The position numbers were made by a program, and so were the translations under genes. This document shows positions 17,238 to 24,433 of a stretch of DNA of 64,000 bases, piece after piece. The notes beneath the pieces were generated by a model. It was not told the DNA's origin. It was given only the letters and a program-made list of their open reading frames with translations, and made no database searches. Each line of letters begins with the position of its first letter. Positions within the stretch are counted from its first letter, which is position 1. The stretch lies in NCBI RefSeq assembly GCF_055900595.2, contig NZ_CM148325.1; one strand, given 5' to 3'.

Positions 17238-18797
17238 TTATTTAATATCTTTCACGCGCATACCGTTGATCTGTTCATCCGTGATGGTGTTACCCGCTTT
17301 AAAGTAATCAACCACCGCGTGATAAACGTAATAACCGCCCGTCGTATTGCGCGCTTTACCCTCGGTAAACGCGGTAAAACCATCTCCACCATCAGCAAGG
17401 AAACTCTGAGTAGCAATGTGGTAAACCGTCGCATCTTCAATCGGTTTGCCATTCAGCGTCAGCGAGATAACCCGCTGACCAACCGGCTTGCTGCTGTCGT
17501 ACTTCATTTCCAGGCCTTTCGATACCTGTAAAACGCCATTACTTAAACTTGCGCCGTGTTCCATCAAACCGCGTAATTGTTTACCCGTGAGTTCCATCGT
17601 CACCAGTTCGTTGGGGAACGGGAAGGTACTGATGACGCCACCCATCGTAATTGCACCCGCCGGGATCTCATTGCGAATCCCACCAGAGTTGGTTAACGCC
17701 AACTGGGTATTTTTACCCGCCGCTACCAGTAAAGCGTCCGCCGCCAGGTTCCCCAGGGATGCCGATTCACCATAGGCACGTTTTAATTCAACTGGCGATT
17801 GCGCCACCGTTTGCTGCACGACTTCATCCAGCTTTTTATTCCAACTATCAATCACCTGTTTTGTTTGCGCATCGGGCTTCCACTCGTCGGCGTAAAGGGT
17901 TTTAAGCTCGAAGTTTTTCACCGTAAAAGTGTGCGGTTTCTCTTTGTAGTCGAGAACCAGTTTACCCACATCAATCCCACCGCTGTCAGTGGAGAGGATG
18001 AGCGTATTGCCGACTTTAATCGGTTCCGGCGTACCCACATGTGCATGCCCGGTGATCAAAATATCCAGCCCTTTCACCTGACTTGCCGTCTGAATATCTT
18101 TATCCAGTGCGCGGCGCACATCTGTGCCCCCCATACTGGACTGGCGGGCCGGAACACCTTCGTGAATCAGCGCAACGGTCAAATCAACCTTGCCTTTGAG
18201 TTCATCGATATAACGTTGTAGCCATTTAATTTCATCACGCGCCTCAATACCCACTCGCGTTGCCGCAGATACCGTATCATTAAAGGCAAATACACCGTGC
18301 AAACCTATAACACCAATTTTCACGCCGTCTTTTTCAATAATGGTATATGGCTTATCCCAGAATGATTTACTGCTGTTCTGATAAAAAACATTACCCTGCA
18401 CAATCGGGAATTGTGCCTGACTCAACTGTAATAACGTATTGTCCCAGCCGTGATCAAATTCATGATTACCTATAGTGGCCGCATCGAACGGCATGGTATT
18501 CATAATATCGATAATCGCCTTGCCTTTAGTCAGGCTGCTGATATACGGCCCGGTAAAATAGTCACCCGCATCAAAAAACCAGGTCGCTTTGTTTTTAGCT
18601 TTTTCTTGTTTAACAAGCGTAGTGATATTTGCCCAGCCGCCAATATCCCGTTTACCCTCAGCAATCCACGGCACTTTATAGGGCTCTACATGTGCGTGGA
18701 GGTCATTGGTATAAATAATGGTGACATCTTTGGCGCAGGCCCAAAACGGCAGTGTTAATGCGATACCCGCAGCAAGCATTTTAATTTTCATAAACAA
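17238..18797 (-). CDS. Island paralog 1: secreted 5'-nucleotidase/UDP-sugar hydrolase-like metallophosphoesterase (UshA family)
   Basis: N-terminal signal peptide; metallophosphatase motifs DLHAH, DAGDYF, GNHEFD, HEG, GHAH; C-terminal 5'-nucleotidase-like domain; no K-12 counterpart at this locus. Confidence 0.8.
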
Positions 18798-18850
18798 TCC
18801 CTTCCAGTGAGATAAAGGATTGCTACATTACGTTCTGAAAGGCTTTTTTA

Positions 18851-18866
18851 TGTGAGAATACTCACA
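18851..18866. promoter_or_regulatory. Perfect CRP-binding palindrome in the divergent intergenic region between island paralog 1 and the Zn-ribbon gene
   Basis: tgtga-gaatac-tcaca equals the TGTGA-N6-TCACA CRP consensus, with an A/T-rich flank. Confidence 0.55.
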
Positions 18867-18923
18867 TCCAGAGGCAATAACTGTAGGACAAAATCGACGA
18901 CCTTATGAAATCGTTGGTGATAT

Positions 18924-20051
18924 ATGTCAAATCTGTTTGCGATTAATGTCTGTAAAACGTTCGGTTGTCGAAATTTGGGATTGGCCTCATCGGAAGATTA
19001 CAGTTGGCCAGACTATAAACTGGGTTTTCCGGCACTGCACTGCCAGGCATGCGGAAGTTACCCCCCTTTGTTTGATGAACAACAATTTCGTGACTGGTTG
19101 TCAGTTCACATGACTGCGTGTGCCATAGAAACAGGGCATTTTTGTCCATCATGCTATTGTAAAGAAAAGATTTTTTATGGCCACAACCCGCATGGAACAC
19201 AACGCGTTCAATGCCGTTCATGCAAAAAAGTCTGGACTCCGAAACAGCAGCCAGCAAGAGAAATTACGTATCCCCAGTCCATTGAAACCGTTCAACTGTT
19301 CATGCCCTTTCAAGGAGCCAGCGCACTACAAAAGCTCTATGTTTTAGTCAGTCTTGACGCCACTCGTGGCAACATCCTTCATCTCTCCACGAATTATACG
19401 CAACATCAGACAGGAGACAGTCTGCGGTACAGTTACAGAGGCAATACAGAACCAACTGAGCACCATAGCGATATTGTGCAGAGGGTAGATATGCGTGAAG
19501 CGCAATTCTTGCGCCGGAGCCAGTTCGATGAAATTCAGTATGGCAGTGCTGTGCTCAAGCGCAATGGCAAGGGAGCCATACTACGCCCGGTTATCACGGC
19601 TCACGGGCATTTCAGAATACTGAAAATCCGCTTTCCACATGTCAAAACGCATATCATTTCACACGAATGTTTTCTGAGAGGCGCAATTATTACAGCCTGG
19701 GCAGATCAGTTCCGCCAACAACAAGGCGAACTTTGGTTCGTAGAAGAAGAAATCAGCGACCGTAACGCTGATATTCCCTGGCATTTTCAGGGAACGACAT
19801 ACCATGGTTGGTGGCAAAATCAGTGGCAACGCTGGGGGCAGGGGAATAACAGCAAGATGGTCTGCCTGCTCACAGGAGTCTCCTTAGAAAGGGGCGCAAA
19901 TGTTTCTCTGGCAACCAGTCGTTGCTTTATCACATGGCTGACAGACCAACACGACTTTACCCAAAGCGCGTTATTATCCGCAGGTCGCGTAACGAAAATG
20001 CTGACCTCACTGGCGTTAAAATACAATGAATCGCTCACTCCATCTTGTTAG
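18924..20051 (+). CDS. Cys-rich Zn-ribbon protein resembling an IS1595/ISXO2-family transposase; catalytic integrity uncertain
   Basis: FCPSCYC…(12 aa)…RVQCRSCKKVW follows the CPxCG…RYxCKxCxKxF transposase Zn-ribbon pattern; a downstream stretch (THIISHECF…FVEEEISDRN) loosely resembles the end of a DDE domain. Confidence 0.55.
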   Translation: MSNLFAINVCKTFGCRNLGLASSEDYSWPDYKLGFPALHCQACGSYPPLFDEQQFRDWLSVHMTACAIETGHFCPSCYCKEKIFYGHNPHGTQRVQCRSCKKVWTPKQQPAREITYPQSIETVQLFMPFQGASALQKLYVLVSLDATRGNILHLSTNYTQHQTGDSLRYSYRGNTEPTEHHSDIVQRVDMREAQFLRRSQFDEIQYGSAVLKRNGKGAILRPVITAHGHFRILKIRFPHVKTHIISHECFLRGAIITAWADQFRQQQGELWFVEEEISDRNADIPWHFQGTTYHGWWQNQWQRWGQGNNSKMVCLLTGVSLERGANVSLATSRCFITWLTDQHDFTQSALLSAGRVTKMLTSLALKYNESLTPSC

Positions 20052-20169: not shown

Positions 20170-20185
20170 TGTTACTAAGATCACA
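20170..20185. promoter_or_regulatory. CRP-like site (one mismatch) in the AT-rich promoter region upstream of island paralog 2
   Basis: tgtta-ctaaga-tcaca, about 95 bp upstream of the ATG at 20281. Confidence 0.3.
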
Positions 20186-20280: not shown

Positions 20281-21834
20281 ATGATGAGAACTGTATTTAC
20301 GACTTTATCAGTCATATTCAGCGTGATGTTTTCTCACAGTATACTAGCTCAGGACGTTACTATTTATTATACGAATGATATTCACGCACATGTCAATCCG
20401 GCAAAAATTCCCGCTGTTGATAAGAACAGACTTGTAGGTGGTATGGCTAATATTGCAGGCATCGTTAATGAAGCGAAGAAAAAAAACAAAGATGTCTTTT
20501 TCTTTGATGCAGGCGACTATTTTACCGGTCCGTATATCAGTACCCTGACCAAAGGTGAAGCTATTATTGATATCATGAACACCATGCCCTTTGATGCGGT
20601 GTCCGTTGGTAATCACGAGTTCGATCACGGCGTGCCCAATATGGTATCTCAGTTATCAAAAGCAAAATTCCCCATTCTGCTGGGAAATATTTACTACACC
20701 GATACAAATAAACCAGTTTGGGATCATCCGTGGACTATTATCGAAAAAGATGGTTTAAAGATTGGTGTGATTGGATTGCATGGTGCATTCGCTTTCTATG
20801 ATACAGTCGCGGCAAAAGCACGTGAAGGCGTAGAAGCCAGAGACGAAATTAAATATTTAAATAAAGCACTTGCAGAATTAAAAGGTAAAGTCGACATTAC
20901 CGTTTTGCTAATTCACGAAGGTGTTCCGGCGCGTCAATCAAGCTTTGGTAGTAAAGATGTGGAGCGGCTACTACAGGCAGATATTGAGACAGCTAAAAAA
21001 GTGAATGGTGTTGATGTCTTAATTACCGGTCACGCACATGTCGGAACACCGCAACCAATAAAAGTTAATAACACATTAATTGTATCTACCGATGCATACG
21101 GCACCGACATCGGAAAACTTGTGCTTGATTACAATCCGAAAACGAAGAAAATTGATAGTTATAATGGTGAGTTAATCACCATCTTCGCAGATCAATTTAA
21201 ACCTGACACCATCGTTCAAAATACTATCGATAAATGGAGTGCAAAGCTTAACAAAATAACACAGGAAGTTGTCGGCCATTCTCCCGTAGTTTTAACACGT
21301 GAGTATGGCAGTTCTTCTTCTACCGGTAACCTTATTCTTGATGCAATGATGGAAAAAACACCAGATGCCATTGCCGGATTTCAAAATAGCGGTGGGATGC
21401 GAGCTGATTTTCCTAAAGGTGATATCACGCTGGGAGATGTTATTAGCACATTCCCCTTTAATAATGACCTCATCGAGATGGATTTGACGGGCCGCGATCT
21501 CAAATCGTTGATGACGCATGCAACCAATCTAACTAACGGTGTGTTACAGGTTTCAAAAAGCGTTGCGGTTGTCTATGACAGCAAAAAACCACTGAACCAA
21601 CGGTTAATCTCTTTCACCATTAACGGCAAACCCGTGGAAGATAATCAAACATATCGTATTGTCACGCACTCCTTTTGTGCCAGTGGTGGTGACGGTTTTG
21701 AAGCATTTTTGAATGGAAAAAATGTGAAGACGATACCGGGAACAACCTCGGCGGAATCTATCATCGATTATTTCAAAAATCATAAACCTGTCACCCCAGA
21801 CTTAACTAAACGAGTAATGGACGTCGCCAAATAA
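20281..21834 (+). CDS. Island paralog 2: secreted UshA-family 5'-nucleotidase-like metallophosphoesterase
   Basis: Signal peptide; DIHAH, DAGDYF, GNHEFD, GHAH motifs; AT-rich codon usage. Confidence 0.8.
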   Translation: MMRTVFTTLSVIFSVMFSHSILAQDVTIYYTNDIHAHVNPAKIPAVDKNRLVGGMANIAGIVNEAKKKNKDVFFFDAGDYFTGPYISTLTKGEAIIDIMNTMPFDAVSVGNHEFDHGVPNMVSQLSKAKFPILLGNIYYTDTNKPVWDHPWTIIEKDGLKIGVIGLHGAFAFYDTVAAKAREGVEARDEIKYLNKALAELKGKVDITVLLIHEGVPARQSSFGSKDVERLLQADIETAKKVNGVDVLITGHAHVGTPQPIKVNNTLIVSTDAYGTDIGKLVLDYNPKTKKIDSYNGELITIFADQFKPDTIVQNTIDKWSAKLNKITQEVVGHSPVVLTREYGSSSSTGNLILDAMMEKTPDAIAGFQNSGGMRADFPKGDITLGDVISTFPFNNDLIEMDLTGRDLKSLMTHATNLTNGVLQVSKSVAVVYDSKKPLNQRLISFTINGKPVEDNQTYRIVTHSFCASGGDGFEAFLNGKNVKTIPGTTSAESIIDYFKNHKPVTPDLTKRVMDVAK

Positions 21835-21868: not shown

Positions 21869-23494
21869 ATGCGAATGAAAACAGTGCAGCGTACTTTACT
21901 TGCCGCAACATTGCTGACTATTTTTTCGGTCTCAGCCATGGCGCAGGATGTCACGATTATTTATACCAATGATCTTCACGCTCATGTGGATTCTTATAAA
22001 GTGCCGTATATCGCAGACGGAAAACGCGACATTGGCGGCTTTGCCAATATATCTACTTTAGTAAAACAAGAGAAAGCGAAAAATAAAGCCACCTTTTATT
22101 TTGATGCTGGAGACTATTTCACCGGCCCTTATATCAGCAGTCTGACAAAGGGCGAAGCAATAATTGACATTATGAATACCATGCCTTTTGACGCAGTATC
22201 AATCGGTAATCATGAGTTTGACCATGGCTGGGATAATGCCCTGCGACAATTAAGCAAAGCGAATTTTCCTGTTTTATTGGGCAATGTTTATCATAAAGAG
22301 AGTGAGAAACCCTTCTGGAACAAGCCCTACACCATCCTGGAAAAAGATGGCATCAAGATTGGTATTATTGGGCTACACGGCGTATTTGCATTTAATGATA
22401 CGGTCTCGGAGCTCTCTCTCCAGGGACTCGATAATGACAATAATAACCGCTTTGATAAATCTTCCGAGACCCTTAAGAATCAGGGGATTGAAGCACGTGA
22501 TGAAGTGAAGTATTTGCAGCATTATATCGACGAGTTACGTGATAAGGTTGACCTCACTGTGGCGCTGGTTCATGAAGGCGTTCCGGCGCGTCAGTCCAGC
22601 ATTGGCAATACAGATGTTAGACGCGCTCTTGATAAAGATATTCAAACCGCTAGCAAGGTGAAAGGATTGGATATTCTGATTACCGGGCATGCCCACGTCG
22701 GAACGCCAGAGCCAATCAAAGTCGGCAACACCTTAATCCTTTCAACTGATAGTGGCGGTATCGATATTGGTAAATTAGTCCTTGATGTCAACCCTACAGC
22801 TCGTACCCATAAAATGAAGAGCTTTGAGCTGAAAACAGTTTATGCCGATGAATGGATACCCGATCCAACGACACAAAAAGTTATCAATGGCTGGAATAAA
22901 AAACTGGCGGATATTGTACGCCAACCAGTGGGTGAATCATCGATTGCATTAACTCGCGCCTATGGTGAGTCATCGCAACTAGGCAACCTGTTTACCGATG
23001 CAATGCTTGTCGCTGCTCCGACTGCACAGATTGCATTGATAAACTCCGGCAGCTTACGTGCGGATATAAATGCAGGCACGATTACCTTTGGCGACATTAC
23101 CAGTACATTCCCCTTCAAGAATGAACTTACTGAAATGGATCTCAGCGGTAAGGATCTGCGTAACCTACTGGAACACGGGGCATCGCTTACCAATGGCATC
23201 CTGCAAATGTCAAAAGGCGCAGAAATGCGCTATACCCCGCAGAAACCAGTAGGTCAGCGCATAGTATCTTTTAAAATTAATGGTGAAGAGATCGTTGATA
23301 CGAATATTTACCATGTTGCAACAACGACTTTCCTTGCACTGGGGGGCGATGGTTTTCTGGCATTCAAAGAAGGGAAAAATGTTCAGGTCCGCGCCGGAAA
23401 TAACATGTCCGATGTCGTGATCGATTATTTGAAGAAAGGCCACAAGATTACGCCTGCACAGGTAAATGAAATGCGGGTGGACGTTAGCAAATAA
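21869..23494 (+). CDS. Island paralog 3: secreted UshA-family 5'-nucleotidase-like metallophosphoesterase with a ~24-aa Asn/Asp-rich insertion
   Basis: Signal peptide; same motif set; closest by eye to paralog 1 but with an extra ELSLQGLDNDNNNRFDKSSETLKN segment. Confidence 0.8.
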   Translation: MRMKTVQRTLLAATLLTIFSVSAMAQDVTIIYTNDLHAHVDSYKVPYIADGKRDIGGFANISTLVKQEKAKNKATFYFDAGDYFTGPYISSLTKGEAIIDIMNTMPFDAVSIGNHEFDHGWDNALRQLSKANFPVLLGNVYHKESEKPFWNKPYTILEKDGIKIGIIGLHGVFAFNDTVSELSLQGLDNDNNNRFDKSSETLKNQGIEARDEVKYLQHYIDELRDKVDLTVALVHEGVPARQSSIGNTDVRRALDKDIQTASKVKGLDILITGHAHVGTPEPIKVGNTLILSTDSGGIDIGKLVLDVNPTARTHKMKSFELKTVYADEWIPDPTTQKVINGWNKKLADIVRQPVGESSIALTRAYGESSQLGNLFTDAMLVAAPTAQIALINSGSLRADINAGTITFGDITSTFPFKNELTEMDLSGKDLRNLLEHGASLTNGILQMSKGAEMRYTPQKPVGQRIVSFKINGEEIVDTNIYHVATTTFLALGGDGFLAFKEGKNVQVRAGNNMSDVVIDYLKKGHKITPAQVNEMRVDVSK

Positions 23495-23506
23495 TAAAAA
23501 AATTAT

Positions 23507-23541
23507 AATGCCATTCATTCACTGAATGGCATTATTTTTCT
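23507..23541 (+). terminator. Rho-independent terminator or attenuator between paralog 3 and the Tsx-like gene
   Basis: aatgccattcattcactgaatggcatt hairpin followed by atttttc. Confidence 0.55.
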
Positions 23542-23572
23542 CTAAATCAACAATAAATAATGAGATATATTT

Positions 23573-24433
23573 ATGTGTATAAAAAAGCACGGGATAGCTT
23601 TATCGATTCTATTAATACCTTGCATTGGAAACGCTCAGGAAATTAAAAGTGAGGAAGGCTGGTTACATCAAAGCTTGAATGTCATTGGTCGCACAGACTC
23701 TCGCTTTGGCCCAAGGCTGACTAACGACCTCTACCCTGAATATACTGTAGCAGGAAGAAAAGACTGGTTTGATTTTTATGGTTATGTTGATCTACCAAAA
23801 TTCTTTGGCGTCGGCAGTCACTATGATGTTGGGATCTGGGATGAGGGCTCACCACTATTTACGGAAATAGAACCTCGGTTTTCCATTGACAAATTGACCG
23901 GATTAAATCTTGCGTTCGGCCCTTTTAAAGAATGGTTCATTGCAAACAACTATGTCTATGATATGGGTGACAACCAGTCATCCCGGCAAAGTACATGGTA
24001 TATGGGGCTTGGTACAGATATCGACACGGGTCTACCAATTAAGCTTTCTGCCAATATATACGCCAAGTATCAGTGGCAAAACTATGGTGCCGCTAATGAA
24101 AATGAATGGGACGGATATCGATTCAAAATAAAATATAGCATTCCTCTTACCCATTTATTCGGAGGGCGATTGGTATACAATAGTTTTACTAACTTTGATT
24201 TTGGCTCCGATCTTGCGGACAAATCACACAATAATAAACGAACCAGTAATGCTATTGCTTCAAGCCATATCCTTTCCCTGCTATATGAACACTGGAAATT
24301 TGCATTTACACTACGTTATTTTCACAACGGTGGACAATGGAATGCTGGGGAGAAAGTTAACTTCGGAGATGGTCCATTTGAATTAAAAAACACAGGATGG
24401 GGAACCTATACTACTATTGGTTATCAATTTTAA
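23573..24433 (+). CDS. Tsx-like outer-membrane nucleoside-specific channel (Tsx/OmpK family paralog)
   Basis: Signal peptide; long collinear similarity to E. coli Tsx (…KDWFDFYGY…[17 protein letters not shown]…[16 protein letters not shown]…[26 protein letters not shown]…); C-terminal aromatic residue. Confidence 0.8.

Follow-up and report, generated by a model that had tools for sequence, protein, structure and literature searches.

A second, accessory Tsx-family outer-membrane channel linked to periplasmic nucleotidases in Escherichia coli

Introduction

Tsx of Escherichia coli is a textbook substrate-specific pore. T6-type phages and colicin K use it as their receptor, the antibiotic albicidin enters through it, and some contact-dependent inhibition toxins target it. 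In UshA, CpdB and NadN systems, including NAD scavenging by Haemophilus NadN, substrates are dephosphorylated in the periplasm before uptake across the inner membrane. In K-12, nucleotides already reach UshA through general porins, and to our knowledge the known systems of this kind use general porins and have no dedicated Tsx-type pore in the same locus.

Here, we describe tsx2 (23573-24433, + strand), an accessory Tsx-family outer-membrane channel gene in a 64,000-nucleotide stretch of DNA (NCBI RefSeq assembly GCF_055900595.2, contig NZ_CM148325.1; hereafter, the window), where it closes a low-GC block of five genes between metF and metL on the E. coli chromosome. Its product resembles K-12 Tsx (structures 1TLY, 1TLW and 1TLZ) in family, with 65% identity, in the 12-stranded fold, in export signals and in transport-critical residues. 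It differs from K-12 Tsx, which is encoded at yajI-tsx-yajD and not in a metF-metL island, in having an L5 loop five residues shorter, the changes N254P and N252D, further changes on strands b1, b2 and b11, a less acidic charge, and a branching position outside the canonical Enterobacterales group. Taking these features together with the genes around it, we think it reasonably probable that Tsx2 is a functional pore for nucleosides or their derivatives in a nucleotide-scavenging module, likely under CRP control, and that it is probably no T6 receptor.

Results and Discussion

An initial annotation of the window, made from its sequence, had proposed a Tsx-family reading frame at these exact coordinates, about two-thirds identical to and collinear with core Tsx, and both points are borne out. 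The frame begins with ATG and encodes 286 aa (RefSeq WP_000334959.1; CFT073 orthologue c4894/C_RS23130), and BLASTP against K-12 Tsx finds 169 identical residues of 262 (65%) with two gaps. The product matches its family model along the full length and above the curated threshold (NCBIfam NF011686 'Tsx', 491.8 bits against a cutoff of 311; protein residues 2-286 on model positions 6-289 of 289), Pfam Channel_Tsx (PF03502) covers residues 30-286 with E=5.6e-70, and the crystallised E. coli Tsx matches with E=1.4e-114. No open reading frame of at least 60 aa lies on the opposite strand across tsx2. The RefSeq label of the frame is already Tsx, and is correct: Tsx2 is a genuine, intact second Tsx of E. 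coli whose family membership is secure.

By inspection, the N-terminus is that of a Sec substrate, with a predicted signal peptide of residues 1-21 (23573-23635, + strand) comprising a basic n-region (MCIKKH), a hydrophobic core of mean Kyte-Doolittle value 2.85, and a cleavage site between G-N-A and QE. The alignment places the C-terminal ...IGYQF, an aromatic beta-signal, opposite ...GYNF of core Tsx. Assignment as a lipoprotein was considered and rejected: LIPC is no lipobox, and none is conserved in Tsx2 because Cys17 is Phe in Citrobacter enshiensis. Tsx2 would thus be Sec-exported and BAM-assembled into the outer membrane as a 12-stranded channel, and by all sequence criteria available it is functional.

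An AlphaFold2 model built from a 34-sequence alignment (pLDDT 82.8, pTM 0.79) has 12 strands, and among PDB entries Foldseek superposes this predicted beta-barrel best on 1TLW_A (E=6e-35, TM(target) 0.92, rmsd 2.0 A), the next entries reaching TM of at most 0.6. Nucleoside transport by E. coli Tsx is abolished by F27L, G28R/E, S217R, G239D and G240D (PMC6499177, quoting Fsihi 1993, Ye & van den Berg 2004). In the alignment all five of these transport-critical positions are kept in Tsx2 (F27, G28, S217, G239 and G240 correspond to F45, G46, S231, G253 and G254), and the residues predicted to face the lumen on strands b3-b8 are near-identical among core Tsx, Tsx2 and the Enterobacter paralogue. 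Conservation of lumen-facing and lipid-facing residues, assigned by strand parity, showed no overall difference (70% vs 67%), so the claim of a conserved pore is confined to b3-b8. Since this pore core is conserved, nucleosides are predicted to pass through Tsx2.

The pore may nonetheless differ in specificity, given that conserved b1, b2 and b11 residues (S22R, E40T, H228K, W13L, Y103F) and the net charge have changed. Of the positions that 85-99% of 103 other Tsx proteins conserve, those altered in Tsx2 concentrate on these three strands. Six of the signature changes (L37P, E40T/R, W177F/L, H228K/S/N, V232T and A233L) are common to all module-linked Tsx2 proteins, and W13L, S22R, T25S, Y103F and others are limited to the E. 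coli and C. enshiensis pair. By strand parity rather than coordinates, S22R, E40T and H228K face the lumen, and the mature protein carries a net charge of -6 (pI 5.6) against -12 (pI 4.9) for core Tsx. These differences hint at altered pore chemistry.

They can also be read more boldly. A simple nucleoside channel does not fully explain the coupling to periplasmic nucleotidases, because the nucleotide substrates must themselves cross the outer membrane first; were Tsx2 a nucleotide-permeable variant whose altered lining passes anionic NMPs or phosphorylated nucleosides to the three nucleotidases, the locus would encode a complete uptake pathway and the linkage would be accounted for. The substitutions of E40 by T (R in Enterobacter), H228 by K and S22 by R, together with the reduced acidity, fit such a pore. 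Set against it are the unchanged central strands and transport-critical residues, the reliance of the lumen and lipid assignment on parity, and the service that general porins already give UshA in K-12, and we regard a nucleotide-permeable Tsx2 as unlikely. A nucleoside-type substrate remains the reading that we prefer.

The surface of the protein has changed more than its barrel. The expectation of conserved strands and divergent loops held when the alignment was mapped on the modelled elements: identity to core Tsx is 103/150 (69%) in predicted strands and 19/26 (73%) in periplasmic turns, against 46/85 (54%) in extracellular loops. Loop L4 is identical in the two proteins, and most of the change falls in L2, L3, L5 and L6. 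The phage-receptor area of E. coli Tsx comprises residues 198-207 and the positions of N249K and N254K/Y (PMC6499177). In Tsx2, the modelled and aligned L5 (residues 211-226; 24203-24250, + strand) has a five-residue deletion within core mature 198-207, turning DSGNAINGIK into DKSHN-----NK, and L6 (residues 252-274; 24326-24394, + strand) keeps N249 and has D for N252 and P for N254; G239 and G240 at the base of L6 are kept. The segment 198-207 is therefore not intact and Asn254 is replaced, with Asn249 retained. With L5 and L6, the T6 receptor area of core Tsx, so remodelled, recognition by T6-type phages is probably lost, and Tsx2, which probably lacks the surface patch for T6, is probably not a T6 receptor. 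As to the receptor variant for phages or colicins that the initial annotation had raised as a possibility, the sequence speaks against recognition by T6.

Such loops raise the question of whether the value of Tsx2 lies at the cell surface, as a decoy or alternative receptor for phages, colicin K or CDI toxins, or as a phage-insensitive backup pore that permits loss of core tsx. Besides the concentration of divergence in L2, L3, L5 and L6 and the altered T6 determinants, this explanation draws on a comparison between genera, in which Tsx2 diverges much faster than the nucleotidase nt1 (59% vs 90% identity). Within E. coli, however, the loops are invariant, unlike in a phage arms race, as mature Tsx2 of the two allele groups differs only at residues 26, 27, 29 and 194. 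Carrier genomes also retain core tsx, so Tsx2 has not replaced the phage-sensitive copy, and the conserved synteny with enzymes points to a metabolic role. We judge a primarily surface-based function to be quite improbable, and return to Tsx2 as a metabolic pore.

The distribution of the locus was surveyed in 5426 complete E. coli genomes. The full island is found in 658 of them (12%), including CFT073 and SMS-3-5, always as a single chromosomal copy; the query 23400-24650 was covered to at least 80% in 658 of 660 matching genomes. Core tsx is present in 5423 of the 5426 genomes, and the carriers sampled each show two matching places, so that tsx2 stands, as first proposed, beside core tsx and not in its stead. 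One genome has three places that match the tsx2 query. A single match falls on a plasmid-labelled record; a plasmid-borne tsx2 was rejected. The nucleotidase gene nt1 is present in 1843/5426 genomes (34%). About 1185 genomes carry only nt1 and the neighbouring 375-aa gene, and the remaining genomes, including K-12 derivatives and O157:H7, have neither state. As these 1185 genomes keep the two genes without nt2, nt3 and tsx2, tsx2 is dispensable for nt1 function. In them the 375-aa gene extends with its 3' end into the end of metL, an arrangement that points either to an ancient loss of nt2-nt3-tsx2 or to a distinct allele lineage. This reduced state has about 87% nucleotide identity to window positions 17238-20051 (E. 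coli EcPF7, locus L088, 3838-6654), a divergence greater than usual within the species.

The proposed island location is supported by this absence from most E. coli genomes and by base composition, the GC content being 34-46% in the island and 54-61% in metL (37-39% in tsx2 and 21% in its upstream spacer). The gene order is nt1 (-), a gene for a Cys-rich 375-aa protein (+), nt2 (+), nt3 (+) and tsx2 (+). Genes nt1 (17238-18791, - strand; 517 aa; CFT073 orthologue c4898), nt2 (20281-21834, + strand; 517 aa; signal peptide cut between ILA and QD) and nt3 (21869-23494, + strand; 541 aa; cut between AMA and QD) encode periplasmic UshA-like metallophosphatases/5'-nucleotidases that are 54-66% identical pairwise. 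Like the UshA, CpdB and NadN enzymes, they have calcineurin-type metallophosphatase and 5'-nucleotidase C-terminal domains and signal peptides; they differ from those systems in falling far under every NCBIfam equivalog cutoff (UshA, CpdB, NadN, SoxB; for UshA, 150-165 bits vs 600). The protein of PDB entries 3IVD and 3IVE is c4898, the CFT073 orthologue of nt1. Both presumably stem from structural genomics, under the name 'c4898' and with uridine and cytidine bound, and our literature search found no associated paper.

The remaining gene (18924-20051, + strand) encodes the Cys-rich 375-aa 'cytoplasmic protein', which is in every module found and has weak similarity to IS1/InsA-type Zn-ribbons and no Pfam domain. 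It contains several CxxC motifs and belongs to a 'cytoplasmic protein' family restricted to Enterobacteriaceae. In E. coli, C. enshiensis and E. hormaechei, its gene and nt1 diverge across a conserved CRP-like site, and in C. freundii a gene of the 375-aa type diverges from the first nucleotidase gene. The protein may be a regulator of the module. Searches of the island for known RNA elements gave no Rfam match at E<=0.1.

Tsx2 is not a recent duplicate; sequence comparisons place it in an old accessory lineage apart from the housekeeping tsx. In a neighbor-joining (NJ) tree the canonical Tsx proteins of Enterobacterales, which share 72-89% identity with K-12 Tsx, form one group; Tsx2 shows about 66% identity to each of its members. 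By its different locus and its position outside the canonical Enterobacterales clade, tsx2 is no orthologue of core tsx. Its closest relative outside E. coli, with 85% identity, is in C. enshiensis (joint clade, 100% support), every other Tsx being at most 68% identical. Tsx2 clusters further with the second Tsx of E. hormaechei and C. freundii (P0077 and P0087) and with protein P0004, which has no nucleotidase neighbours (79% bootstrap). Among GTDB species representatives there was no Tsx2 orthologue above 68% identity, and 80 Tsx loci of these representatives showed no homologue of the island nucleotidases in flanks of up to 10 kb.

The module was found elsewhere through the loci of individual accessory Tsx proteins. 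C. enshiensis has the identical five-gene layout, also between metF and metL; there, a gene for a 327-aa multi-pass membrane protein without a Pfam match lies between tsx2 and metL (locus L083, 11292-12275). The E. hormaechei module is at another locus and is 67% (375-aa protein), 90% (nt1), 72% (nt2) and 59% (Tsx2) identical to the island. In C. freundii the module occupies another chromosomal site, and tsx2 is flanked by nucleotidase genes, with a gap of 21 nt. Genes for a third nucleotidase, a radical-SAM protein and an HTH_46 protein are downstream of this tsx2 (CP018810, locus L089, 7904-11860). The second Tsx proteins of E. hormaechei and C. freundii share with Tsx2 the module layout and the signature substitutions, but are only 59-65% identical to it, have longer L5 and L6 of unrelated sequence, and follow two nucleotidase genes as opposed to three in the E. 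coli island.

Selection on the gene was estimated from dN/dS. The ratio is 0.117 in the comparison with CFT073 and 0.049 in that with C. enshiensis, at dS of about 1.5-1.6. By these estimates tsx2 is under strong purifying selection, and its interpretation as a pseudogene was rejected. That tsx2 recurs next to periplasmic nucleotidase genes in four species favours a function in scavenging nucleotides or nucleosides, and speaks against a purely surface-receptor role.

Expression was considered from the intergenic sequences. The initial annotation had noted a hairpin and T-run before tsx2 and proposed that the gene is transcribed separately from the nucleotidase genes or attenuated. The structure is real: between nt3 and tsx2 lies a 13-bp perfect hairpin with T5 and an upstream A-run (23505-23540, + strand), terminator-like on both strands, with its stem at 23505-23535, a 5-nt loop and a following TTTTT (-16.7 kcal/mol; z = -6.5 vs shuffles). 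It is strong in C. enshiensis as well, where compensatory changes preserve it. The proposed separate or attenuated transcription would fit the window allele but be allele-specific, as in the commoner CFT073-type allele (locus L084, 8100-8140) two mismatches lie within the stem, the T-run is interrupted and the hairpin is weak (-5.3 kcal/mol, z = -1.7). For hairpin state within E. coli, the window-type allele is the minority and the CFT073-type the majority. Because the hairpin is polymorphic, the two lineages may express tsx2 differently relative to the nucleotidases. The gap of about 31 nt between hairpin and ATG holds no recognisable tsx2 promoter, so that tsx2 is most simply a distal operon gene with allele-dependent attenuation. 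A promoter candidate in the 3' end of nt3 (23466-23495) was rejected, the final T of its -10 hexamer being lost in CFT073.

Two sites point to CRP. A perfect CRP-consensus palindrome, TGTGAGAATACTCACA (18851-18866), lies in the divergent intergenic region between nt1 and the 375-aa gene, and a CRP-like site with one mismatch to the consensus, TGTTACTAAGATCACA (20170-20185), lies in a 28%-GC region upstream of nt2-nt3-tsx2. The first is the sole perfect TGTGA-N6-TCACA in the 64-kb window, and the second is one of five sites with one mismatch. As genome-wide counts of CRP-type matches are at chance level, the argument is one of position and conservation: in the window, CFT073, C. enshiensis and E. 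hormaechei the half-sites are kept and the spacers vary. From these candidate sites, the island is probably under CRP control. There is no CRP-like site directly upstream of tsx2 itself, and inspection by eye found no convincing CytR operator near the CRP-like sites. In the searchable literature on a second tsx or c4893-c4898 we found no functional study, and the sole relevant mention is that of c4894 in a TosR RNA-seq table. On tosR overexpression in CFT073, c4894 is up by log2 3.3 and is among the 25 most induced genes (PMC5956150). The supplements examined for that study do not list the genes neighbouring c4894.

These observations bear on whether tsx2 could be a mere passenger of an old island, silent unless its silencing is lifted artificially, functionally redundant and adding nothing to core Tsx. 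The AT-rich DNA (37-39% GC in the gene, 21% in the spacer), the tosR overexpression as the only expression evidence found, the strong terminator-like hairpin directly upstream in the window allele, and the deletion of nt2-nt3-tsx2 in about 1185 genomes are all compatible with such a passenger. A silent gene is hard to reconcile, however, with strong purifying selection (dN/dS 0.05) that has persisted while synonymous divergence rose to about 1.5, with a module kept in four species at different loci, and with conserved CRP-type sites, and we hold this explanation to be very unlikely.

We therefore keep to a working, scavenging-linked pore, for which we infer the following scheme of substrate, regulation and phage phenotype. 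The module (the Zn-ribbon protein, Tsx2 and either two or three periplasmic 5'-nucleotidases), which is horizontally distributed and has tsx2 as its last gene, would serve the scavenging of extracellular nucleotides and nucleosides. Its expression would probably depend on CRP, being turned on under carbon limitation, and would respond to the regulator TosR. The Tsx2 pore would let a nucleoside-type substrate into the periplasm, where the periplasmic enzymes would strip phosphate, and inner-membrane nucleoside transporters would then import the product. The stronger form of this scheme, in which Tsx2 is the dedicated entry port of a mobile, CRP-controlled module of Enterobacteriaceae, admits through its less acidic pore phosphorylated nucleosides from which canonical Tsx is closed, and is invisible to T6-type phages and colicin K owing to its remodelled loops, has in our estimate a low probability. 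Were it true, CFT073-like lineages would have an uptake route for nucleosides or nucleotides independent of the phage-sensitive core Tsx.

Tsx2 is an ordinary member of a known family, and its module context is moderately interesting. If it acts as an ordinary Tsx, it would be just one more paralogue, redundant and with a correct annotation already in place. A second, divergent Tsx linked to nucleotidases is nevertheless carried by about one-eighth of complete E. coli genomes, including that of the uropathogen CFT073. Should Tsx2 prove a working pore whose surface loops differ, uptake of nucleosides or nucleotides could survive loss of core tsx under phage or colicin pressure, receptor-based prediction of phage host range could be complicated by Tsx2, and the gene could point to a so far uncharacterised locus for nutrient scavenging in extraintestinal pathogenic lineages.
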